NCBI RefSeq assembly: GCF_003991155.1
Contig: NZ_CP031293.1
Source: Escherichia coli
Lineage (GTDB): Bacteria; Pseudomonadota; Gammaproteobacteria; Enterobacterales; Enterobacteriaceae
Reading direction: 5' to 3' (one strand)
Length of the DNA: 64,000 nt
Part shown: in pieces, positions 1,268 through 45,182 of the stretch
Layout of the letters: every line of letters begins with the position of its first letter
Position numbering within the stretch: position 1 is the stretch's first letter
The notes under the pieces: model-generated
Seen by the model: only the letters and a program-made list of their open reading frames with translations
Told to the model about the DNA's origin: nothing
The model's database searches: none
Position numbers and translations under genes: made by a program

Positions 1268-2491
1268 TTATCCCCGAATATCATTTATAAATTGACGTAA
1301 CACGTTCTCTTTATCGAGCGTGCGTTCGGCATATTCACGTGCCACCGTGTTGTGTTTGGGCAGCAGGAGCGCCTGACGAATCCCCGCCACCAGCGCCTCG
1401 ACCGATTCCGGTTCCACGCAAACCGCAATGCCCGGAAAGGTTTCGCAAAGCTGTCCCAGTTCTGTGTGGGCTTCAGCAGTAATCACCGCGTTACCGCCTA
1501 CCGCCAGAATATTGGTCAGTTTCGACGGCAATACGGCATCTGCCGCGCCGCGTTTTTGCACCACCAGATGGCAATCCCCCATCTTCAGCAGTGCGGGTAA
1601 AGCGTCATATGATTGCAGCGGAAAAAATTGCATGTTGCGCAGTCCACGCTGCTGCGCCATTTTTTCCAGCCGCGCTTTGCCGCCGCCCTGCCCGACAATG
1701 GCAAAAATAAGCGGTTCATCGCGCAGGCGATCGGCAGCTTCAATAACGTTTTCCAGCCCCTGCTTTTCACCAATATTGCCGGAGTAAAGAACGATTTTTT
1801 TGTTATCCGGCAGGGCAAGCTGGTTACGAAGGTCGTCAACATCGGCGTCTGCAACATGTTGAAAACGGGCGATTTCCGACCAGTTGGGGAAGAAGATGAC
1901 GTTTTCCGCCGCCACGCCTTTTTCGATAGCTTTATTCATCATCGAGCGCGAAATCGTGGAGACGTTATCGACGTTATGCAGTCCGCTACGTTCGAACGCC
2001 GTCGCCAGCTGTGCCACTTTGCCGCCTTTACTTTTTCCGGCAAGGCCCAGCCCCAGCATGGCGTCCACTTCGTAATCCTGAATATGCAGCACCGTGCGCG
2101 CACCAGACAGTTTCGCCAGCAGGCGCATTCCCGGCGTGCAAAACAGCGTTGGCACCACGCCGATAATGCGATCCGGCTTCCAGCGACGTTGCGCCATCAG
2201 CGGAAAGAAACTGCTGGCGGCAAAACTGCCGAGATGCAACAGGCGTTTCAGGGTGCTCGGCTGTTTTGGCACGTACAGCGGGCAGCGCCACACCGTGGCG
2301 GCCCCCTCTTCTCGTTTGTACCGCCAGGCGGAATAGTTCTCGCCCACCTGCCATTGCGGGTAGTAAGGCGGTGCGGTAATAACCCGCACCTCATGACCTT
2401 GTGCCGCCAGCCATTCCACCATCTCGCCGGTGTACTTGCCGATGCCGGTTAACTCCGGCGAGTAGTTAATGCCGTAGACCAGTATTTTCAT
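1268..2491 (-). CDS. wcaI: colanic acid biosynthesis glycosyltransferase
   Basis: 407-aa [23 protein letters not shown]... GT-B glycosyltransferase; position between cpsB and gmm as in K-12 wca cluster. Confidence 0.9.
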
Positions 2492-2967
2492 AATCCGGGT
2501 ACTCCGGCACGCTTCTCAGCGAGAAAATAGGCGCGGCTGTTAGCGTGAACATTGTCACTGGCGAGCAACGCGTCCGGCGTCAGCCAGCGGTAATCGTCAT
2601 GCTGCTCATCCGGCAGTAACAGATCTTCTTCAGCGACTCTGAAGCGAAAACCGAGCACCACATAGTGAGTGGTGAAATCCGTGTCGGAGAAGTTATCGTC
2701 ATAAAAGTGCTGCCAGACACCGTAAAACTGGCCTACTGTTATCGGCAGACGCAGCCCCAGTTCCTCCATCGTCAGCCGCTCAAATGCGGCTTCCAGCGTT
2801 TCGTCTTTCTGCACGCGCCCTCCCGGCACAAACCAGTAACCCTGCGCCGGGCGGTTGGTTCTTTTGCCAAGCAGAAACTCGCCGCGACTGTTCTCGACAA
2901 TAAAGTCGAGAGAGACAAGCGGAGTAGAGCGCACTACCGTGGCAAAGTCTTCCTGACGTAAAAACAT
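2488..2967 (-). CDS. gmm: GDP-mannose mannosyl hydrolase (Nudix)
   Basis: [15 protein letters not shown]... with Nudix box ([23 protein letters not shown]); start trimmed to second Met; 4-nt overlap with wcaI. Confidence 0.9.
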
Positions 2968-2969
2968 CA

Positions 2970-3935
2970 TTACCCCCGAAAGCGGTCTTGATTCTCAAGG
3001 AACCACTGGTAAGTGCTGGCGAGCCCCGCTTCCAGTGAGATTTCGTGATACCAGCCAAGCTGATGCAGGCGTGTCACATCCAGCAGTTTGCGCGGTGTAC
3101 CATCCGGTTTACTGGCATCAAAAACCACCCGACCTTTGTAACCCACCACTTTGGCGATGGTTTGCGCCAGCTCGCGGATAGTGCAGTCAACGCCCGTGCC
3201 GACGTTAATGTGCGACAGCATCGGTTGGGTGTTCTCCAGCCAGACTTCGTGCGCCAGCTCCATCACATGAATGCTCGCCGCCGCCATATCATCGACGTGC
3301 AGAAATTCGCGCATCGGTGTACCGCTGCCCCACACCACCACGTCCGGTGCATTCTGTGCCGTCGCCTCGTGGAAGCGACGCAGCAATGCAGGGATCACAT
3401 GCGAATTACTCGGGTGGAAGTTGTCATGCGGGCCATACAGGTTGGTCGGCATGACCGAGCGATAATCGCGTCCATACTGGCGGTTGTAAGATTCGCACAG
3501 TTTGATCCCGGCGATTTTGGCAATAGCATAAGGCTCGTTAGTCGGCTCCAGCGTACCCTGCAATAACTCGCTTTCTGCCATCGGCTGTTTTGCCAGTTTC
3601 GGGTAGATACAGGACGATCCGAGAAACAGCAGTTTGTTCACGTCGTTCTGATGCGCGGCGTGAATGATGTTGCTCTCAATCATCATGTTCTGGTAGATGA
3701 AATCTGCCGGATAGGTGTTGTTGGCAACAATGCCGCCCACTTTCGCCGCCGCCAGATAGACCTGGTCAATACGTTCGCTGGCAAAGAAATCATGCACCGC
3801 GCGGCTGTCCAGCAGGTTCAGCTCGTCGCGGGTGCGTAATACCAGTTCCACATCACCGCGCTGTTCGAGCTGCCGCCTGATGGCGGAACCGACCATCCCG
3901 CGATGGCCAGCGATAAAAATGCGTTGTTTACTCAT
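2970..3935 (-). CDS. fcl: GDP-L-fucose synthase
   Basis: 321-aa ORF, N-terminal Rossmann GxxGxxG ([11 protein letters not shown]), SDR-type epimerase/reductase; follows gmd. Confidence 0.92.
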
Positions 3936-3937
3936 GC

Positions 3938-5059
3938 TTATGACTCCAGCGCGATCGCCACGTCGTAGCCGTGAGATTTCAGCAGAGAGTGTTTTTTCGC
4001 CGCTTCAAGGTCATTAGCCACCATTTCAGACACCATCTCTCTGAGGGTGATTTCCGGTTTCCAGCCCAGTTTTTCGTGCGCTTTGGTCGGGTCGCCGAGC
4101 AGCGTTTCAACTTCAGCCGGACGGAAGTAACGCGGATCAACGGCGATAATCACATCACCCGGTTTAACGCCCGGCGCGTCATGCCCGGTGACGGAAACCA
4201 CAATGCCCTTCTCTTCAACGCCCGTACCTTCAAAGCGCAGTTTGATGCCCAGTTGTGCTGCCGCCATTTCCACGAACTGACGCACGGAGTACTGAACGCC
4301 GGTGGCAATAACGAAATCTTCCGGTTGTTCCTGTTGCAGCATCATCCACTGCATTTTTACGTAGTCTTTGGCATGGCCCCAGTCACGCAGGGAATCCATA
4401 TTGCCGAGGTACAGGCACGATTCCAGCCCCTGGGCGATGTTGGCGATTGCGCGGGTGATTTTGCGGGTAACGAAGGTTTCGCCGCGGCGCGGGGATTCAT
4501 GGTTGAAGAGAATACCGTTACAGGCGTACATGCCGTAGGATTCGCGGTAGTTAACGGTGATCCAGTAGGCGTACAGTTTGGCGACCGCATACGGAGAGCG
4601 TGGATAGAACGGCGTGGTTTCTTTCTGCGGAATTTCCTGCACCAGACCATACAGTTCAGAGGTGGAAGCCTGATAGAAACGGGTTTTCTTTTCCAGACCG
4701 AGGAAGCGGATCGCCTCCAGCAGACGCAGCGTACCCATCGCGTCGACGTCAGCGGTATATTCCGGTGACTCAAAAGAAACCGCAACGTGGCTCATTGCGC
4801 CCAGGTTGTACACTTCATCCGGCTGCACTTCACGCAAAATGCGCGTCAGGTTGGAGGTATCACTCAGGTCGCCATAATGCAGATGGAATTTCGGGTTGCA
4901 GGTGTGCGGATCCTGATAAATGTGATCCACGCGCTCGGTGTTGAATGACGATGCGCGACGCTTAATACCATGCACCTCGTAACCTTTTTCCAGCAGAAAC
5001 TCTGCCAGGTAAGAACCGTCTTGTCCGGTTACGCCGGTGATGAGAGCGACTTTTGACAT
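3938..5059 (-). CDS. gmd: GDP-mannose 4,6-dehydratase
   Basis: 373-aa [35 protein letters not shown]..., canonical Gmd N-terminus. Confidence 0.95.
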
Positions 5060-41684: not shown

Positions 41685-42403
41685 CCGAGTTACCAATCGA
41701 CGAAAACACGCCACGTATTTTGATCGTGGAAGATGAACCGAAGCTGGGGCAGTTGCTTATTGATTATCTGCGTGCTGCGAGCTATGCGCCGACGCTTATC
41801 AGCCACGGCGATCAGGTACTGCCATATGTGCGCCAGACACCACCGGATCTGATCCTGTTGGATCTGATGCTCCCTGGCACCGATGGCCTGACGTTGTGTC
41901 GGGAGATTCGTCGTTTTTCTGACATTCCGATCGTGATGGTGACAGCAAAAATCGAAGAGATCGACCGCCTGCTCGGGCTGGAGATTGGCGCAGATGATTA
42001 TATCTGTAAGCCGTACAGCCCACGGGAAGTGGTAGCGCGCGTCAAAACCATTTTGCGCCGTTGCAAACCGCAGCGCGAGTTGCAGCAACAGGATGCTGAA
42101 AGCCCGTTGATTATCGACGAAGGTCGTTTTCAGGCTTCATGGCGCGGAAAAATGCTTGACCTGACGCCTGCGGAATTTCGTCTGCTGAAAACGCTCTCTC
42201 ATGAACCAGGAAAAGTGTTCTCCCGCGAGCAATTGCTCAATCATCTTTATGACGACTACCGCGTAGTAACCGACCGCACCATCGACAGCCACATTAAAAA
42301 CCTGCGCCGCAAGCTGGAATCTCTCGACGCCGAACAGTCATTTATCCGCGCCGTTTACGGCGTCGGTTACCGCTGGGAAGCCGACGCCTGCCGCATCGTT
42401 TAA
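41681..42403 (+). CDS. baeR: OmpR-family response regulator
   Basis: 240-aa ORF; receiver domain plus winged-helix output; ATGA overlap with baeS. Confidence 0.95.
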
Positions 42404-42409
42404 TATTTT

Positions 42410-42450
42410 TACCTGCCGGAGAAGGCATTCACGCCGCATCCGGCAACATT
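42410..42450. repeat. REP-like palindromic element after baeR
   Basis: gccggagaaggcattcacgccgcatccggc motif read directly. Confidence 0.5.
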
Positions 42451-42582
42451 ATCCCATGCATTGTCGGCTATCTGACATTATCTCTCCGCCCTGGCAAGCA
42501 CCTGAAAATCGCTCATACTTTAATCGGCAAACAGTCCTTTTAGATGCTGTTTTCGATACGCAATTTCAATCAAGGAGTCATT

Positions 42583-42915
42583 ATGGCTGGTTGGTTTGAA
42601 CTCAGTAAGAGCAGTGATAATCAGTTCCGGTTTGTGCTAAAAGCGGGCAATGGTGAGACTATCCTCACCAGCGAGCTGTATACCTCAAAAGCCTCTGCGG
42701 AAAAGGGCATCGCGTCGGTACGTAGCAACAGCCCGCAAGAAGAACGCTATGAGAAAAAAACGGCAAGCAACGGCAAATTCTATTTCAATCTGAAAGCCGC
42801 CAATCATCAAATTATCGGCTCCAGCCAGATGTACGCCACCGCGCAATCTCGTGAAACCGGAATTGCCTCCGTTAAAGCCAATGGCACAAGCCAGACGGTA
42901 AAAGACAATACGTAA
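42583..42915 (+). CDS. yegP: DUF1508/UPF0339 family protein
   Basis: ORF-track entry trimmed to MAGWFELSKSSDNQFRFVLKAGNGE... (110 aa); internal two-fold repeat. Confidence 0.85.
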   Translation: MAGWFELSKSSDNQFRFVLKAGNGETILTSELYTSKASAEKGIASVRSNSPQEERYEKKTASNGKFYFNLKAANHQIIGSSQMYATAQSRETGIASVKANGTSQTVKDNT

Positions 42916-43168
42916 TTACGATGCCGGGCGTGGGTTGTTGGCGTCCGGCTTTATATCAAAACAACTCTTAGTTATTGATAATTAAGATTAACCTCCGCCA
43001 TTAAAATAGTGGGCACTGACGAGCACTCGTTGTGCTTTCTTTGTTTACCATCCCATACTTATCTTCCTGAACATGTTCATATGCCAAAATATCTTCTAAT
43101 ACTTTCGTGACGCTATCCGGTTTATGAAATACACTGATGTAAGATTTTTACTTACAGGCGGGTGTAAA

Positions 43169-43420
43169 ATGGCCAGAACGATGACGGTTGATCTCGGCGA
43201 TGAGTTGCGTGAATTTATCGAGTCCTTAATTGAATCCGGCGACTATCGCACCCAAAGCGAAGTGATCCGTGAGTCGCTGCGCTTACTTCGAGAAAAGCAA
43301 GCAGAGTCTCGCCTGCAAGCGTTACGTGACATGCTCGCTGAAGGGTTGAGTAGTGGTGAAGCTCAGCCGTGGGAAAAGGACGCGTTTTTACGGAAGGTGA
43401 AAGCAGGGATAAGGAAATAA
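43169..43420 (+). CDS. ParD-like antitoxin (ribbon-helix-helix)
   Basis: MARTMTVDLGDELREFIESLIESGDYRTQSEVIRESLRLL... typical of ParD/COG3609-type antitoxins; the start is uncertain (alternative in-frame starts at 43124 and 43181). Confidence 0.65.
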   Translation: MARTMTVDLGDELREFIESLIESGDYRTQSEVIRESLRLLREKQAESRLQALRDMLAEGLSSGEAQPWEKDAFLRKVKAGIRK

Positions 43421-43421
43421 T

Positions 43422-43718
43422 GTGCGTACTATAAAACTCATGCCAAAAGCCAATGAGGATTTAGAAGGCATCTGGTATTACAGCTATCACCATTTCGGCG
43501 AACCACAAGCCGACAGATATGTGGAACATCTTTCAGACGTTCTCCAGATTCTGAGTAACAATAATATAGGTACGCCCAGACCTGAATTAGGCGAAGGTAT
43601 TTTTGTTCTTCCTTTTGAACGCCACGTAATTTATTTCCTGCAATCGCCAGAGGAAATTATCGTCATTCGTATCCTTAACCAAAACCAGGACGCCTCCAGA
43701 CATTTACACTGGAGCTAA
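43422..43718 (+). CDS. ParE-like toxin (RelE/ParE superfamily)
   Basis: GTG start 2 nt after antitoxin stop with aagga SD; N-terminal LMPKANEDLEGIWYY motif characteristic of ParE. Confidence 0.65.
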   Translation: MRTIKLMPKANEDLEGIWYYSYHHFGEPQADRYVEHLSDVLQILSNNNIGTPRPELGEGIFVLPFERHVIYFLQSPEEIIVIRILNQNQDASRHLHWS

Positions 43719-43820
43719 ACCCGCCGATTGCGCTACAATGCCCGCCCTTAAAGTGGGGGCACTCCCCTAACCGCTTCATCAGGTGAAGCGGATCTGACCT
43801 GTCATCAGAACGAGAGAATT

Positions 43821-45182
43821 ATGTTTAAACCGGAACTCCTTTCCCCGGCGGGAACGCTGAAAAATATGCGTTACGCTTTCGCTTATGGCGCAGATGCTGT
43901 TTATGCGGGCCAGCCGCGTTACTCCCTGCGTGTGCGCAACAACGAATTCAACCACGAAAATCTCCAGCTCGGCATCAATGAAGCCCACGCGCTGGGGAAA
44001 AAGTTTTATGTCGTGGTCAACATTGCACCGCACAACGCCAAGCTGAAAACCTTTATCCGTGACCTGAAACCGGTGGTGGAGATGGGGCCGGATGCGCTGA
44101 TTATGTCCGATCCAGGGCTGATTATGCTGGTGCGCGAGCACTTCCCTGAAATGCCGATCCACCTCTCGGTGCAGGCTAACGCCGTGAACTGGGCGACGGT
44201 GAAATTCTGGCAGCAAATGGGACTGACCCGCGTGATCCTCTCTCGCGAGCTGTCGCTGGAAGAGATTGAAGAGATCCGTAATCAGGTGCCGGATATGGAG
44301 ATCGAGATCTTCGTTCACGGTGCGCTGTGCATGGCCTACTCCGGTCGCTGCCTGCTCTCTGGCTATATCAACAAGCGCGACCCGAACCAGGGCACCTGCA
44401 CCAACGCCTGCCGCTGGGAGTACAACGTCCAGGAAGGGAAAGAAGATGACGTTGGCAACATCGTGCACAAGTACGAGCCGATTCCGGTGCAAAATGTTGA
44501 GCCGACGCTGGGCATCGGCGCGCCAACCGACAAAGTGTTTATGATCGAAGAAGCTCAGCGTCCGGGCGAGTATATGACTGCGTTTGAAGATGAGCACGGC
44601 ACTTACATCATGAACTCGAAAGATCTGCGCGCTATCGCCCACGTTGAACGCCTGACCAAAATGGGCGTGCATTCGCTGAAAATCGAAGGTCGTACAAAAT
44701 CTTTCTACTATTGCGCACGCACCGCGCAGGTTTACCGTAAAGCTATCGATGACGCAGCTGCGGGAAAACCATTCGATACCAGCCTGCTGGAAACTCTGGA
44801 AGGTCTGGCGCATCGTGGCTATACCGAAGGTTTCCTGCGTCGTCATACTCACGACGATTATCAGAACTACGAATACGGTTATTCAGTTTCTGACCGCCAG
44901 CAGTTTGTTGGTGAGTTTACCGGTGAGCGCAAGGGCGACCTCGCGGCGGTAGCGGTGAAAAATAAATTCTCCGTTGGCGACAGCCTTGAGCTGATGACGC
45001 CGCAAGGGAACATTAACTTTACCCTTGAGCATATGGAAAACGCCAAAGGCGAAGCAATGCCGGTCGCACCGGGCGATGGTTATACTGTGTGGATCCCGGT
45101 GCCGCAGGATCTTGAGCTAAATTACGCGCTGCTGATGCGTAATTTCTCCGGGGAAACCACGCGTAACCCCCACGGTAAGTGA
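43821..45182 (+). CDS. yegQ: U32-family peptidase-like protein (rRNA hydroxylation-associated)
   Basis: 453-aa ORF MFKPELLSPAGTLKNMRYAFAYGADAVYAGQPRYSLR... Confidence 0.92.
   Translation: MFKPELLSPAGTLKNMRYAFAYGADAVYAGQPRYSLRVRNNEFNHENLQLGINEAHALGKKFYVVVNIAPHNAKLKTFIRDLKPVVEMGPDALIMSDPGLIMLVREHFPEMPIHLSVQANAVNWATVKFWQQMGLTRVILSRELSLEEIEEIRNQVPDMEIEIFVHGALCMAYSGRCLLSGYINKRDPNQGTCTNACRWEYNVQEGKEDDVGNIVHKYEPIPVQNVEPTLGIGAPTDKVFMIEEAQRPGEYMTAFEDEHGTYIMNSKDLRAIAHVERLTKMGVHSLKIEGRTKSFYYCARTAQVYRKAIDDAAAGKPFDTSLLETLEGLAHRGYTEGFLRRHTHDDYQNYEYGYSVSDRQQFVGEFTGERKGDLAAVAVKNKFSVGDSLELMTPQGNINFTLEHMENAKGEAMPVAPGDGYTVWIPVPQDLELNYALLMRNFSGETTRNPHGK

Follow-up and report, generated by a model that had tools for sequence, protein, structure and literature searches.

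A chromosomal ParD/ParE toxin–antitoxin module between yegP and yegQ that is probably older than Escherichia coli and was probably lost from K-12

The window analysed here, a stretch of 64,000 nucleotides of Escherichia coli DNA, carries two adjacent, co-oriented genes, parD and parE, flanked by yegP (42583-42915) on one side, with baeS and baeR before it, and by yegQ/trhP (43821-45182) on the other (Table 1). The upstream open reading frame, counted from its first ATG, spans 43124-43420 on the + strand and encodes 98 aa, and a single base separates its TAA stop codon (43418-43420) from the GTG start codon of parE at 43422. The first-pass annotation of this DNA, made from the sequence alone, had placed 2 nt between the two genes; the measured count is 1 nt, close enough for its point about tight coupling to stand. 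Both peptides that it quoted are present, with MARTMTVDLGDELREFIESLIESGDYRTQSEVIRESL starting from the internal ATG at 43169 and PKANEDLEGIWYY corresponding to residues 8-20 of the second open reading frame. The two-gene, antitoxin-first arrangement is kept in all homologous loci, and positions 42400-44200 of the window are 100% identical to E. coli 2016C-3878. Both genes are annotated by RefSeq/PGAP (WP_001329834.1 and WP_001259171.1), the toxin under the label 'RelE/ParE family' only, and the exact proteins are each found on at least 1000 contigs. The pair is an ordinary, previously annotated ParD/ParE toxin–antitoxin module, and not a novel one.

Table 1. Features of the variable segment between yegP and yegQ (positions in the window)
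Feature	Position	Strand	Remarks
yegP terminator-like hairpin	42916-42949	+	Identical to K-12 up to 42949; stem 42937-42949 followed by TTTAT (terminator scan); outside the variable segment
AT-rich upstream spacer	42950-43106	.	Missing in K-12; neither coding nor RNA-family signal
Predicted sigma-70 promoter of parDE	43107-43135	+	-35 GTGACG 43107-43112; 17-nt spacer; -10 TACACT 43130-43135
Perfect palindrome GTAAG-N7-CTTAC, predicted ParD (ribbon-helix-helix) operator	43139-43155	.	Just 3' of the -10
parD antitoxin	43169-43420	+	83 aa (MARTMTV...IRK); RefSeq model, 98 aa from 43124
parE toxin	43422-43718	+	98 aa; GTG start; AAGGA Shine-Dalgarno-like motif 43411-43415
Right edge of the variable segment	43719-43729	.	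K-12-shared sequence resumes at 43730 (GCGCTACAATGCC...)

The spacer upstream of the genes (42916-43168) has a G+C content of 39.5%, compared with 51.3% for the whole window. It had been described as AT-richer, which is correct, and as having no counterpart, which is not. Specifically, its first 34 bp (42916-42949) have a counterpart in K-12, while the remainder (42950-43168, 35.2% G+C), which has none there, is conserved among E. coli alleles and in E. whittamii, and about 66 bp of it (42950-43015) are retained even in an allele that carries a 5.2-kb island. A terminator-like hairpin lies within the AT-rich part at 43021-43037. An Rfam search of 42350-43900 returned only sub-threshold matches (naRNA4, 26 bits versus a gathering threshold of 59.5; 6A RNA, 21 versus 41), and nothing in it points to a small RNA within the spacer.

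Reading of the sequence by eye identified a likely promoter of parDE, predicted from 8 of the 12 consensus positions. A promoter scan reported none on the + strand upstream of parD, since the scan needs 9 of 12. Plasmid homologues have TATAAT, TATAGT and TAAACT at the aligned -10, with T1, A2, A4 and T6 invariant, and Pseudocitrobacter carries identical -35 and -10 elements. The adjacent palindrome was likewise spotted by eye and then checked with a pattern search, which found GTAAG-N7-CTTAC once in 64 kb against an expectation of 0.02; the automated repeat search had missed it because its 5+5 arms are too short. The palindrome occurs once each in 13 of 17 fetched loci, these being all 13 with a copy of the promoter region and including chromosomal, plasmid and prophage copies, and it is located ~13-18 nt 5' of the parD ATG in the loci where gene coordinates were read. 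A conserved palindrome adjoins a conserved -10, and we regard it as the predicted operator through which ParD may autoregulate the operon.

The profile searches bear out the proposal of a ParD/ParE-like pair between yegP and yegQ, in agreement with NCBIfam, solved structures and an AlphaFold model. ParD matches PF03693 (ParD_antitoxin) over residues 1-78 (E=4.7e-19) and ParE matches PF05016 (ParE_toxin) over residues 4-90 (E=7.7e-14), both essentially at full length. ParD also matches TIGR02606, scoring 88.4 bits where the cut-off is 46.2; the NCBIfam search with the toxin gave no family at E<=0.01. Because of the Pfam and TIGR02606 matches, the pair is not a chance arrangement of open reading frames, and the locus is almost certainly a ParD/ParE module. 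Among PDB sequences, ParD is most similar to PrpA (7YCS_D, E=1.9e-27), followed by VcParD2, CcParD1 and MtParD1 (E=1e-10 to 1e-12), and it is a ribbon-helix-helix ParD of the PF03693/TIGR02606 family.

The start codon of parD deserves comment. All homologues of ParD begin at MARTMTV, and a 1-nt indel right before ATG 43169 in E. whittamii and in strain 88COLEC disrupts the 15-codon extension. Judged by these homologues and indels, the start at 43124, taken both by the first-pass annotation and by RefSeq, is probably wrong, and the conserved start is ATG 43169. The 98-aa ParD model of RefSeq would then probably begin 45 nt ahead of the real start, within the likely promoter. Owing to the early start, PGAP calls the intact 88COLEC allele a frameshifted pseudogene.

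In sequence and fold, the toxin is a ParE with a BECR core and the long N-terminal alpha-hairpin. The AlphaFold2 model (pLDDT 93.4) comprises the ParE-specific hairpin (H8-25 and H27-46) and three strands, so that the ParE fold, whose absence would have counted against the proposal, is predicted with high confidence. Consistent with the model, ParE keeps 8 of 8 nearly invariant residues (A10, D13, I17, A30, Y33, H68, R83 and L85) of a 117-sequence family alignment. PF05016 covers RelE-like mRNases as well as ParE gyrase inhibitors (PMC11980606) and the PGAP name is just 'RelE/ParE family', which leaves room for a toxin that acts as a RelE-like, ribosome-dependent mRNA endonuclease and not as a gyrase poison. 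We consider such an activity extremely improbable. All significant PDB sequence matches to ParE are ParE-type toxins, namely PrpT (E=6e-13) and MtParE1, CcParE1 and VcParE2 (~2e-7, all <=2.5e-7), of which the last three are regarded as gyrase inhibitors (bioRxiv 10.1101/2025.07.24.666505; PMC11980606). The best 22 Foldseek matches to the model are likewise all ParE-type toxins; the best five have TM scores of 0.83-0.87, with PrpT nearest (TM 0.87, rmsd 1.1 Å) and MtParE1, VcParE2 and CcParE1 following, whereas RelE, YoeB and YafQ reach only 0.5-0.66. Furthermore, the partner is a PF03693 ParD and not RelB.

K-12 had been described as having no ParDE at this site, and this is confirmed: MG1655 carries 21 bp in place of 780 bp of the window (42950-43729). 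Of 5426 complete E. coli genomes, 1845 (about a third) carry the 780-bp cassette, always chromosomal and in single copy, and about 66% lack it. The degenerate, homopolymer-rich copy of strain HS-01, which looks like sequencing or assembly noise, was left out as an allele. Comparison of the yegP-yegQ interval does not, on the other hand, sustain the first reading of the module as 'inserted' there, which probably has the order of events reversed. Both E. whittamii and one Pseudocitrobacter genome have the cassette at the same position, with an identical right junction, while in the cryptic lineage Escherichia sp. E1V33 parE codons 56-98 alone remain. All three conserve the right junction, as do the four E. 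coli allele classes, of which two other than the K-12 class, the 5.2-kb island allele and a HEAT-repeat/IS1 allele, still contain clear remnants of the cassette. The K-12 junction shows weak resemblance to the parE 3' end only. A scan of genome contigs yielded only 3 loci, its peptide patterns being strict, and outside E. coli the comparison covers E. whittamii, Escherichia sp. E1V33 and Pseudocitrobacter.

Several features are nonetheless those that might be seen if the source lineage had recently acquired the cassette horizontally, by insertion into a yegP-yegQ spacer that was empty before: the low G+C content (cassette 43% and spacer 35%, against 51% for the window), the homologues known from plasmids and prophages, the many E. 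coli genomes that lack the cassette, and the K-12 junction without a long remnant. We judge such an insertion highly unlikely, and it is largely contradicted already by the outgroup copies at the identical site, by the partial deletions in E. sp. E1V33 and the two E. coli allele classes, and by the weaker resemblance in K-12. In addition, no flanking direct repeats, integrase, transposase or IS elements were found around the cassette, every carrier genome has one copy at one locus, and cassette identity within E. coli follows flank identity, both being ~98%. It is thus likely that K-12 lost the cassette rather than that the source strain gained it, and the simplest reading is that the locus is older than the species and that K-12, like most E. 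coli, no longer has it.

Both genes are under purifying selection. Relative to E. whittamii, parD has a dN/dS of 0.026 and parE one of 0.13; relative to Pseudocitrobacter, synonymous and non-synonymous codon changes number 35:7 in parD and 41:20 in parE. The dS of the cassette to E. whittamii (~0.2) is below that of the flanks (0.45-0.55), and dS to Pseudocitrobacter is saturated, so that some recombinational exchange is possible. None of the full-length alleles examined has a disrupted parE. Repeated loss within E. coli shows that the locus is dispensable.

Taken together, the locus is best explained, with good confidence, as a chromosomal type II toxin–antitoxin operon, ParE (PF05016) with ParD (PF03693), inherited vertically at the (baeR/yegP)-yegQ position and since lost by K-12 and by the majority of E. 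coli. In the mechanism that we propose, the weak sigma-70 promoter would direct a bicistronic parD-parE mRNA. ParD would dimerise through its N-terminal ribbon-helix-helix domain, and the dimer, by analogy with characterised relatives, would bind the palindrome, close to or at the transcription start, and autorepress the operon, while the C-terminal half of ParD would wrap around ParE and neutralise it. Because the GTG lies one base past the parD stop codon, synthesis of ParE would be tied to that of ParD and fall below it. Where ParD is degraded without replacement, free ParE would, again by analogy, poison DNA gyrase, leading to DNA damage and growth arrest. Toxicity, neutralisation, autorepression and the gyrase target are here inferred from CcParE1, VcParE2, MtParE1 and PrpT/PrpA; the module is probably still active, and gyrase is, with somewhat less assurance, the favoured target, in line with VcParE2, which acts on gyrase via its alpha-hairpin (bioRxiv 10.1101/2025.07.24.666505). 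Our literature search found no experiment on the yegP-yegQ toxin–antitoxin locus and nothing under four WP protein accessions, general toxin–antitoxin reviews do not discuss the locus, and neither ParD nor ParE matches a known phage-defence model in PADLOC.

Two positions of the toxin bear on its potency. Full toxicity of VcParE2 needs Trp or Tyr at position 25, and VcParE2 His88 is among the residues whose mutation reduces toxicity (bioRxiv 10.1101/2025.07.24.666505). The present ParE has Phe in place of Trp25, and in place of His88 it has Asn86, at a position occupied by His in 94 of 117 relatives and in PrpT; the toxin could therefore be attenuated. The module might then be intact with a weak or non-toxic toxin, as reported for P. 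aeruginosa ParE1, and be kept mainly for ParD, which could serve as a transcription factor or, as an antidote, counter addiction to the closely related parDE of IncF plasmids. In keeping with such a role, the present ParD shows 90-92% identity to its counterparts on Klebsiella and Pantoea IncF plasmids and agrees with them at 44 of 45 residues in the DNA-binding half, whereas the toxins are only 63-66% identical; the plasmid copies have the operator palindrome in common with the present locus, and many E. coli IncF plasmids carry a frameshifted copy. We regard a weak toxin as unlikely, however, given the dN/dS of parE and its intactness in full-length alleles. Phe25 is also found in PrpT, a reported potent toxin, and Phe25 with Ser or Asn at 86 recurs in plasmid copies that are intact and, presumably, active as addiction modules. 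Since PrpT has Phe25 and the intact plasmid copies have Ser86, the two substitutions look like traits of a subfamily. An operon with an active toxin accordingly remains our preferred reading.

Since the DNA-binding half is almost identical and the operator is shared, ParD might act on IncF modules. We raise as a speculation, distinctly unlikely as a whole, that the chromosomal ParD cross-represses and cross-neutralises IncF parDE, as a form of anti-addiction or plasmid interference, and that yegP-yegQ is a small hotspot of cargo replacement. If so, cross-acting ParD could help to determine in which E. coli lineages the loss of IncF parDE plasmids is tolerated and might explain the decayed parDE on many E. 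coli IncF plasmids, and an ancestral toxin–antitoxin module would have been replaced by unrelated cargo, namely the 5.2-kb DUF4034/DUF1266/PcfJ island and the HEAT-repeat gene. Taken alone, one more chromosomal ParDE, already named by RefSeq and belonging to a well-studied family, matters little. Its evolution would provide a clean example of a toxin–antitoxin module that predates its species and is repeatedly lost by deletion and replacement, counter to the usual assumption that a gene missing in K-12 was inserted elsewhere. K-12, because it naturally lacks the module, is also a convenient test host for a ParE subfamily without the conserved His and with close plasmid relatives.

Among known systems, ParDE of RK2 is set apart by its antitoxin, which belongs to PF09386 and not to PF03693. 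ParDE-I of IncI/IncF plasmids was considered as a plasmid relative and rejected; its toxin YacB is only 15% identical to CcParE1 (PMC6614396), and it is for this reason assigned, from the published description and not from direct sequence comparison, to a lineage different from that of the IncF copies found here. The PaaR2-PaaA2-ParE2 systems of E. coli O157:H7 prophages (5CW7/5CZF) have a ParE2 of similar fold (TM 0.77) with ~16-17% identity to the present toxin. Unlike the present locus, which has two genes only and a ribbon-helix-helix ParD, they combine the toxin with a PaaA antitoxin that is not RHH, have a separate regulator as their third component, and reside in prophages. Caulobacter ParDE1 (3KXE), V. 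cholerae ParDE2 (7R5A) and M. tuberculosis ParDE1 (8C24) have in common with the present pair the architecture of a ribbon-helix-helix ParD with a ParE; the folds agree well (TM 0.83-0.85), but identity is only 26-31%, at the E values given above for toxins and antitoxins.

The IncF relatives are unstudied ParD/ParE pairs adjoining a RepFIB-type replicon, as in K. pneumoniae pINF078-VP, Pantoea stewartii pDSJ09 and a Salmonella plasmid contig. They are ~68-71% identical to the present locus in nucleotide sequence over the promoter, parD and parE, and share with it the GTG start of ParE, the palindrome and the position of the -10. They differ in that their parD (88 aa) overlaps parE by 14 nt, whereas the present parD ends one base short of parE, and in their context, which is a plasmid replicon with a resolvase. 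The E. coli IncF copy is frameshifted and has decayed in pJJ1887-5. A close homologue also occurs on a prophage, and a search of a phage collection gave a single partial match, at 73% identity.

The closest characterised relative is PrpT/PrpA of the Pseudoalteromonas rubra plasmid pMBL6842 (PDB 7YCS/7YCU; PMC7848731, PMC9731233), whose toxin PrpT is reported to be potent and whose antitoxin PrpA binds the promoter of its own operon. The PrpTA genes sit on a plasmid, and by binding the iterons of the origin as well, PrpA limits plasmid copy number; the present module is, by contrast, chromosomal in all 1845 genomes and has no rep gene in its neighbourhood. Iteron binding of the PrpA type was considered and set aside, the fetched loci having no extra copies of the palindrome near plasmid rep genes and only the one at the parD promoter. 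The PrpA motif, TTTG(T/A)AAT, is also unlike GTAAG-N7-CTTAC. In other respects the two systems correspond closely: PrpA and PrpT are the best matches for the respective partners, with 61% identity for ParD and 39% for ParE, and both systems combine the PF05016/PF03693 pairing with an antitoxin-first operon and proteins of similar size (PrpT 98 aa, PrpA 86 aa).

The stretch is part of an E. coli chromosome, with the gene order mdtD-baeS-baeR-yegP-[two small genes]-yegQ(trhP)-yegR-yegS, and positions 42400-44200 are 100% identical to E. coli 2016C-3878 (NZ_CP029747). The first-pass annotation had proposed that the two small ORFs form a ParD/ParE-like pair; both ORFs, and both of the peptides it quoted, are present, and RefSeq/PGAP already annotates the two. 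The exact 83-aa ParD and the exact 98-aa ParE each occur in at least 1000 contigs of a public protein collection. Because the pair is annotated in RefSeq and falls squarely within a known family, we rate it as already known; no paper on the yegP-yegQ pair was found. Useful by-products of the analysis are a corrected ParD start, a conserved predicted operator, and evidence for K-12 as the derived state. Rfam and PADLOC searches over the parDE region gave no sRNA family match and no defence model match, respectively. A weak resemblance to naRNA4 in the baeR-yegP spacer stays below the Rfam gathering score (26 bits versus 59.5).

Features of the yegP-yegQ region (window positions)
Feature	Position	Strand	Basis or description
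naRNA4-like match	42414-42454		Rfam, sub-threshold
Cassette	42950-43729		AT-rich spacer, parD and parE
Predicted -35, GTGACG	43107-43112	+	read from sequence
parD as annotated	43124-43420	+	ORF call; WP_001329834.1, 'type II toxin-antitoxin system ParD family antitoxin'
Predicted -10, TACACT	43130-43135	+	17-nt spacer after -35; aligned with homologues
Perfect palindrome GTAAG-N7-CTTAC	43139-43155		directly downstream of predicted -10
parD, 83-aa form	43169-43420	+	
parE	43422-43718	+	ORF call; WP_001259171.1, 'RelE/ParE family toxin'

The best-supported reading is that parDE is a canonical type II ParDE module. A HMMER search against Pfam, the check proposed in the first-pass annotation, assigns residues 1-78 of the 83-aa ParD to ParD_antitoxin (PF03693, E=4.7e-19) and residues 4-90 of ParE to ParE_toxin (PF05016, E=7.7e-14). 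ParD also scores 88.4 bits against NCBIfam TIGR02606 (cut-off 46.2), and its PDB matches are PrpA (7YCS_D, E=1.9e-27), V. cholerae ParD2 (3e-12), Caulobacter ParD1 (3e-11), and M. tuberculosis ParD1 (9e-11). ParE matches PrpT (6e-13) and MtParE1, CcParE1, and VcParE2 (~2e-7), all over the full length. HMMER detects 2143 ParE relatives at E<=1e-3 among 1.8 billion representative proteins, and in an alignment of 117 of them ParE keeps all eight nearly invariant positions (A10, D13, I17, A30, Y33, H68, R83, and L85).

The AlphaFold2 model of ParE built from this alignment (pLDDT 93.4, pTM 0.84) comprises a strand (residues 3-6), two helices (8-25 and 27-46), and three further strands. ParE-type toxins make up all 22 of the top Foldseek hits in the PDB, among them PrpT (TM 0.87, rmsd 1.1 Å) and MtParE1, VcParE2, and CcParE1 (TM 0.83-0.85), so the proposed pair withstands the refuting condition set in the first-pass annotation, a toxin without a predicted ParE/RelE fold. 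RelE, YoeB, and YafQ rank later (TM 0.5-0.66), and it is very improbable that ParE is a RelE-like mRNase.

Two residues bear on whether the toxin is attenuated, with ParD as the selected function. ParE has Asn at position 86, which aligns with His88 of VcParE2 and is His in 94 of the 117 relatives, and Phe at position 25, where full VcParE2 toxicity needs Trp or Tyr (bioRxiv 10.1101/2025.07.24.666505). Both departures are traits of the whole subfamily, intact plasmid copies included, and Phe25 is also found in PrpT, for which potent toxicity has been reported (PMC7848731, PMC9731233). Both genes are under purifying selection (dN/dS versus E. whittamii 0.026 for parD and 0.13 for parE). We consider attenuation unlikely, if clearly less so than an mRNase activity. 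In the canonical module, by analogy with CcParE1, VcParE2, MtParE1, and PrpT/PrpA, ParD dimers would bind the palindrome and so repress the operon, the C-terminal region of ParD would sequester and neutralise ParE, and free ParE would be toxic by poisoning gyrase.

The annotated 98-aa ParD start at ATG 43124 is unlikely to be real, because every homologue (Klebsiella, Pantoea, and Salmonella plasmids, Yersinia, E. whittamii, and Pseudocitrobacter) begins MARTMTV, because a 1-nt insertion directly before ATG 43169 in E. whittamii and E. coli 88COLEC puts the 15-codon extension (43124-43168) out of frame, and because the predicted -35 and -10 elements flank ATG 43124. Since the 98-aa RefSeq model starts at this non-conserved ATG, the 88COLEC parD (locus L010, 1340-1637) is flagged by PGAP as a 'frameshifted' pseudogene, yet its 83-aa ORF is intact.

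The predicted promoter agrees with the consensus at only 8 of 12 positions and was therefore missed by the promoter scan; its -10 element aligns with TATAAT, TATAGT, and TAAACT of plasmid homologues, and Pseudocitrobacter has the same elements. The palindrome occurs once in the 64-kb window (0.02 expected) and, as a single copy per locus, in 13 of the 17 loci compared, about 13-18 nt upstream of the parD ATG where gene coordinates were read. It looks as an RHH operator should and is a putative operator. The parE GTG, preceded by an AAGGA motif, follows the parD TAA by one base, a layout compatible with translational coupling and lower toxin output.

As the first-pass annotation stated, K-12 lacks ParDE here, with 21 bp in place of the 780-bp cassette. 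Four allele classes account for 5400 of 5426 complete E. coli genomes: the intact cassette, always single-copy and chromosomal (1845 genomes, 34%); the K-12-type short junction (3182); a 5.2-kb island (298); and a HEAT-repeat gene with a decayed 52-53-aa parD fragment, with IS1 in some (75). The site behaves as a small variable hotspot. In the island allele, ~66 bp from the start of the spacer and ~20 bp from the end of parE survive, the interior (window 43016-43697) being replaced by 9620-14720 of L018 (E. coli RIVM_C040753, NZ_CP134715). The island's four minus-strand genes encode a 201-aa hypothetical, a 702-aa DUF4034, a 238-aa DUF1266, and a 404-aa PcfJ-domain protein, for which PADLOC gave nothing convincing (best E=5e-4, to PDC-S32). 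The HEAT-repeat allele (L020, E. coli 2017-03-3CC, 2402-3981; L019, NDM2; L011, 1283) encodes a 466-aa HEAT-repeat protein; behind that gene come a divergent parD with an internal deletion and a parE 3' stub, and parE itself is absent. IS1 truncates the HEAT-repeat gene in some strains, and in NDM2 it sits next to yegI, on a flank that lacks baeSR and yegP. The homopolymer-rich, degenerate cassette of E. coli HS-01 (L009, NZ_CP172817, 1720-2300) appears to stem from uncorrected error in a long-read assembly, not from biology.

The K-12 junction (…GCTTTACCAGAGCCCCCCACA|GCGC…) is alignable to the 3' end of parE (…CATTTACACTGGAGCTAAACCCGCCGATT|GCGC…), and the E1V33 and NDM2 variants look intermediate, so a parE remnant may be present in K-12. 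At the K-12 deletion junction (L002, 1535-1565), TTTACC comes to lie 17 nt before TACAAT, a conserved sequence ahead of yegQ; in the cassette allele the distance from a similar TTTACA is 25 nt (window 43700-43740). Speculatively, the K-12 deletion may have altered yegQ promoter geometry.

The first-pass annotation had called the pair inserted, a description largely contradicted by the same site being occupied in E. whittamii and Pseudocitrobacter, by the remnants in other alleles, and by flanks in which neither direct repeats nor an integrase or IS element was found. Within E. coli, cassette and flanks are equally diverged (~98% identity each). From these comparisons, which outside E. coli covered this locus in E. 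whittamii, Escherichia sp. E1V33, and Pseudocitrobacter, we conclude that the cassette is probably an old resident that K-12 and most E. coli would have lost in no fewer than three or four separate events. The cassette shows less synonymous divergence from E. whittamii (about 0.2) than the flanks do (0.45-0.55), so recombination may have exchanged some sequence between Escherichia lineages. An ultimate origin in mobile DNA is plausible, given the low G+C and the relatives found elsewhere: on IncF plasmids beside a RepFIB-type replicon, in a prophage region of Yersinia, and at a different chromosomal location in Pluralibacter. A recent insertion is improbable.

Among relatives at this locus, E. 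whittamii carries an intact cassette, and in Escherichia sp. E1V33 parE codons 56-98 remain after an internal deletion. One Pseudocitrobacter genome, its genus assigned from exact BaeR and YegQ sequences, has an orthologous pair between baeR and yegQ (ParD 92%, ParE 80% identical) with the same promoter, palindrome, and right junction; it lacks yegP between baeR and parD (L013/L014, 2627-2748), so yegP itself varies across genera there. Plasmid pairs are intact in Klebsiella, Pantoea, and Salmonella. In E. coli pJJ1887-5 (L003, IncFIA/FIB/FIC, 4054-4599) both genes are frameshifted, next to a tyrosine recombinase and a RepB-family initiator, and 16 further E. coli plasmids among the matches listed have the same 67.9% match.

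The three-component PaaR-PaaA-ParE system of O157:H7 and RK2-type ParD (PF09386) were ruled out as identities of parDE and parD, respectively. The closest relatives overall are the unstudied IncF-plasmid pairs (ParD 90-92% identical). Among characterised systems, PrpT/PrpA of P. rubra is the nearest (antitoxins 61%, toxins 39% identical); the plasmid copy-number function of PrpA has no substrate at chromosomal parDE, where there is no replicon and only one palindrome.
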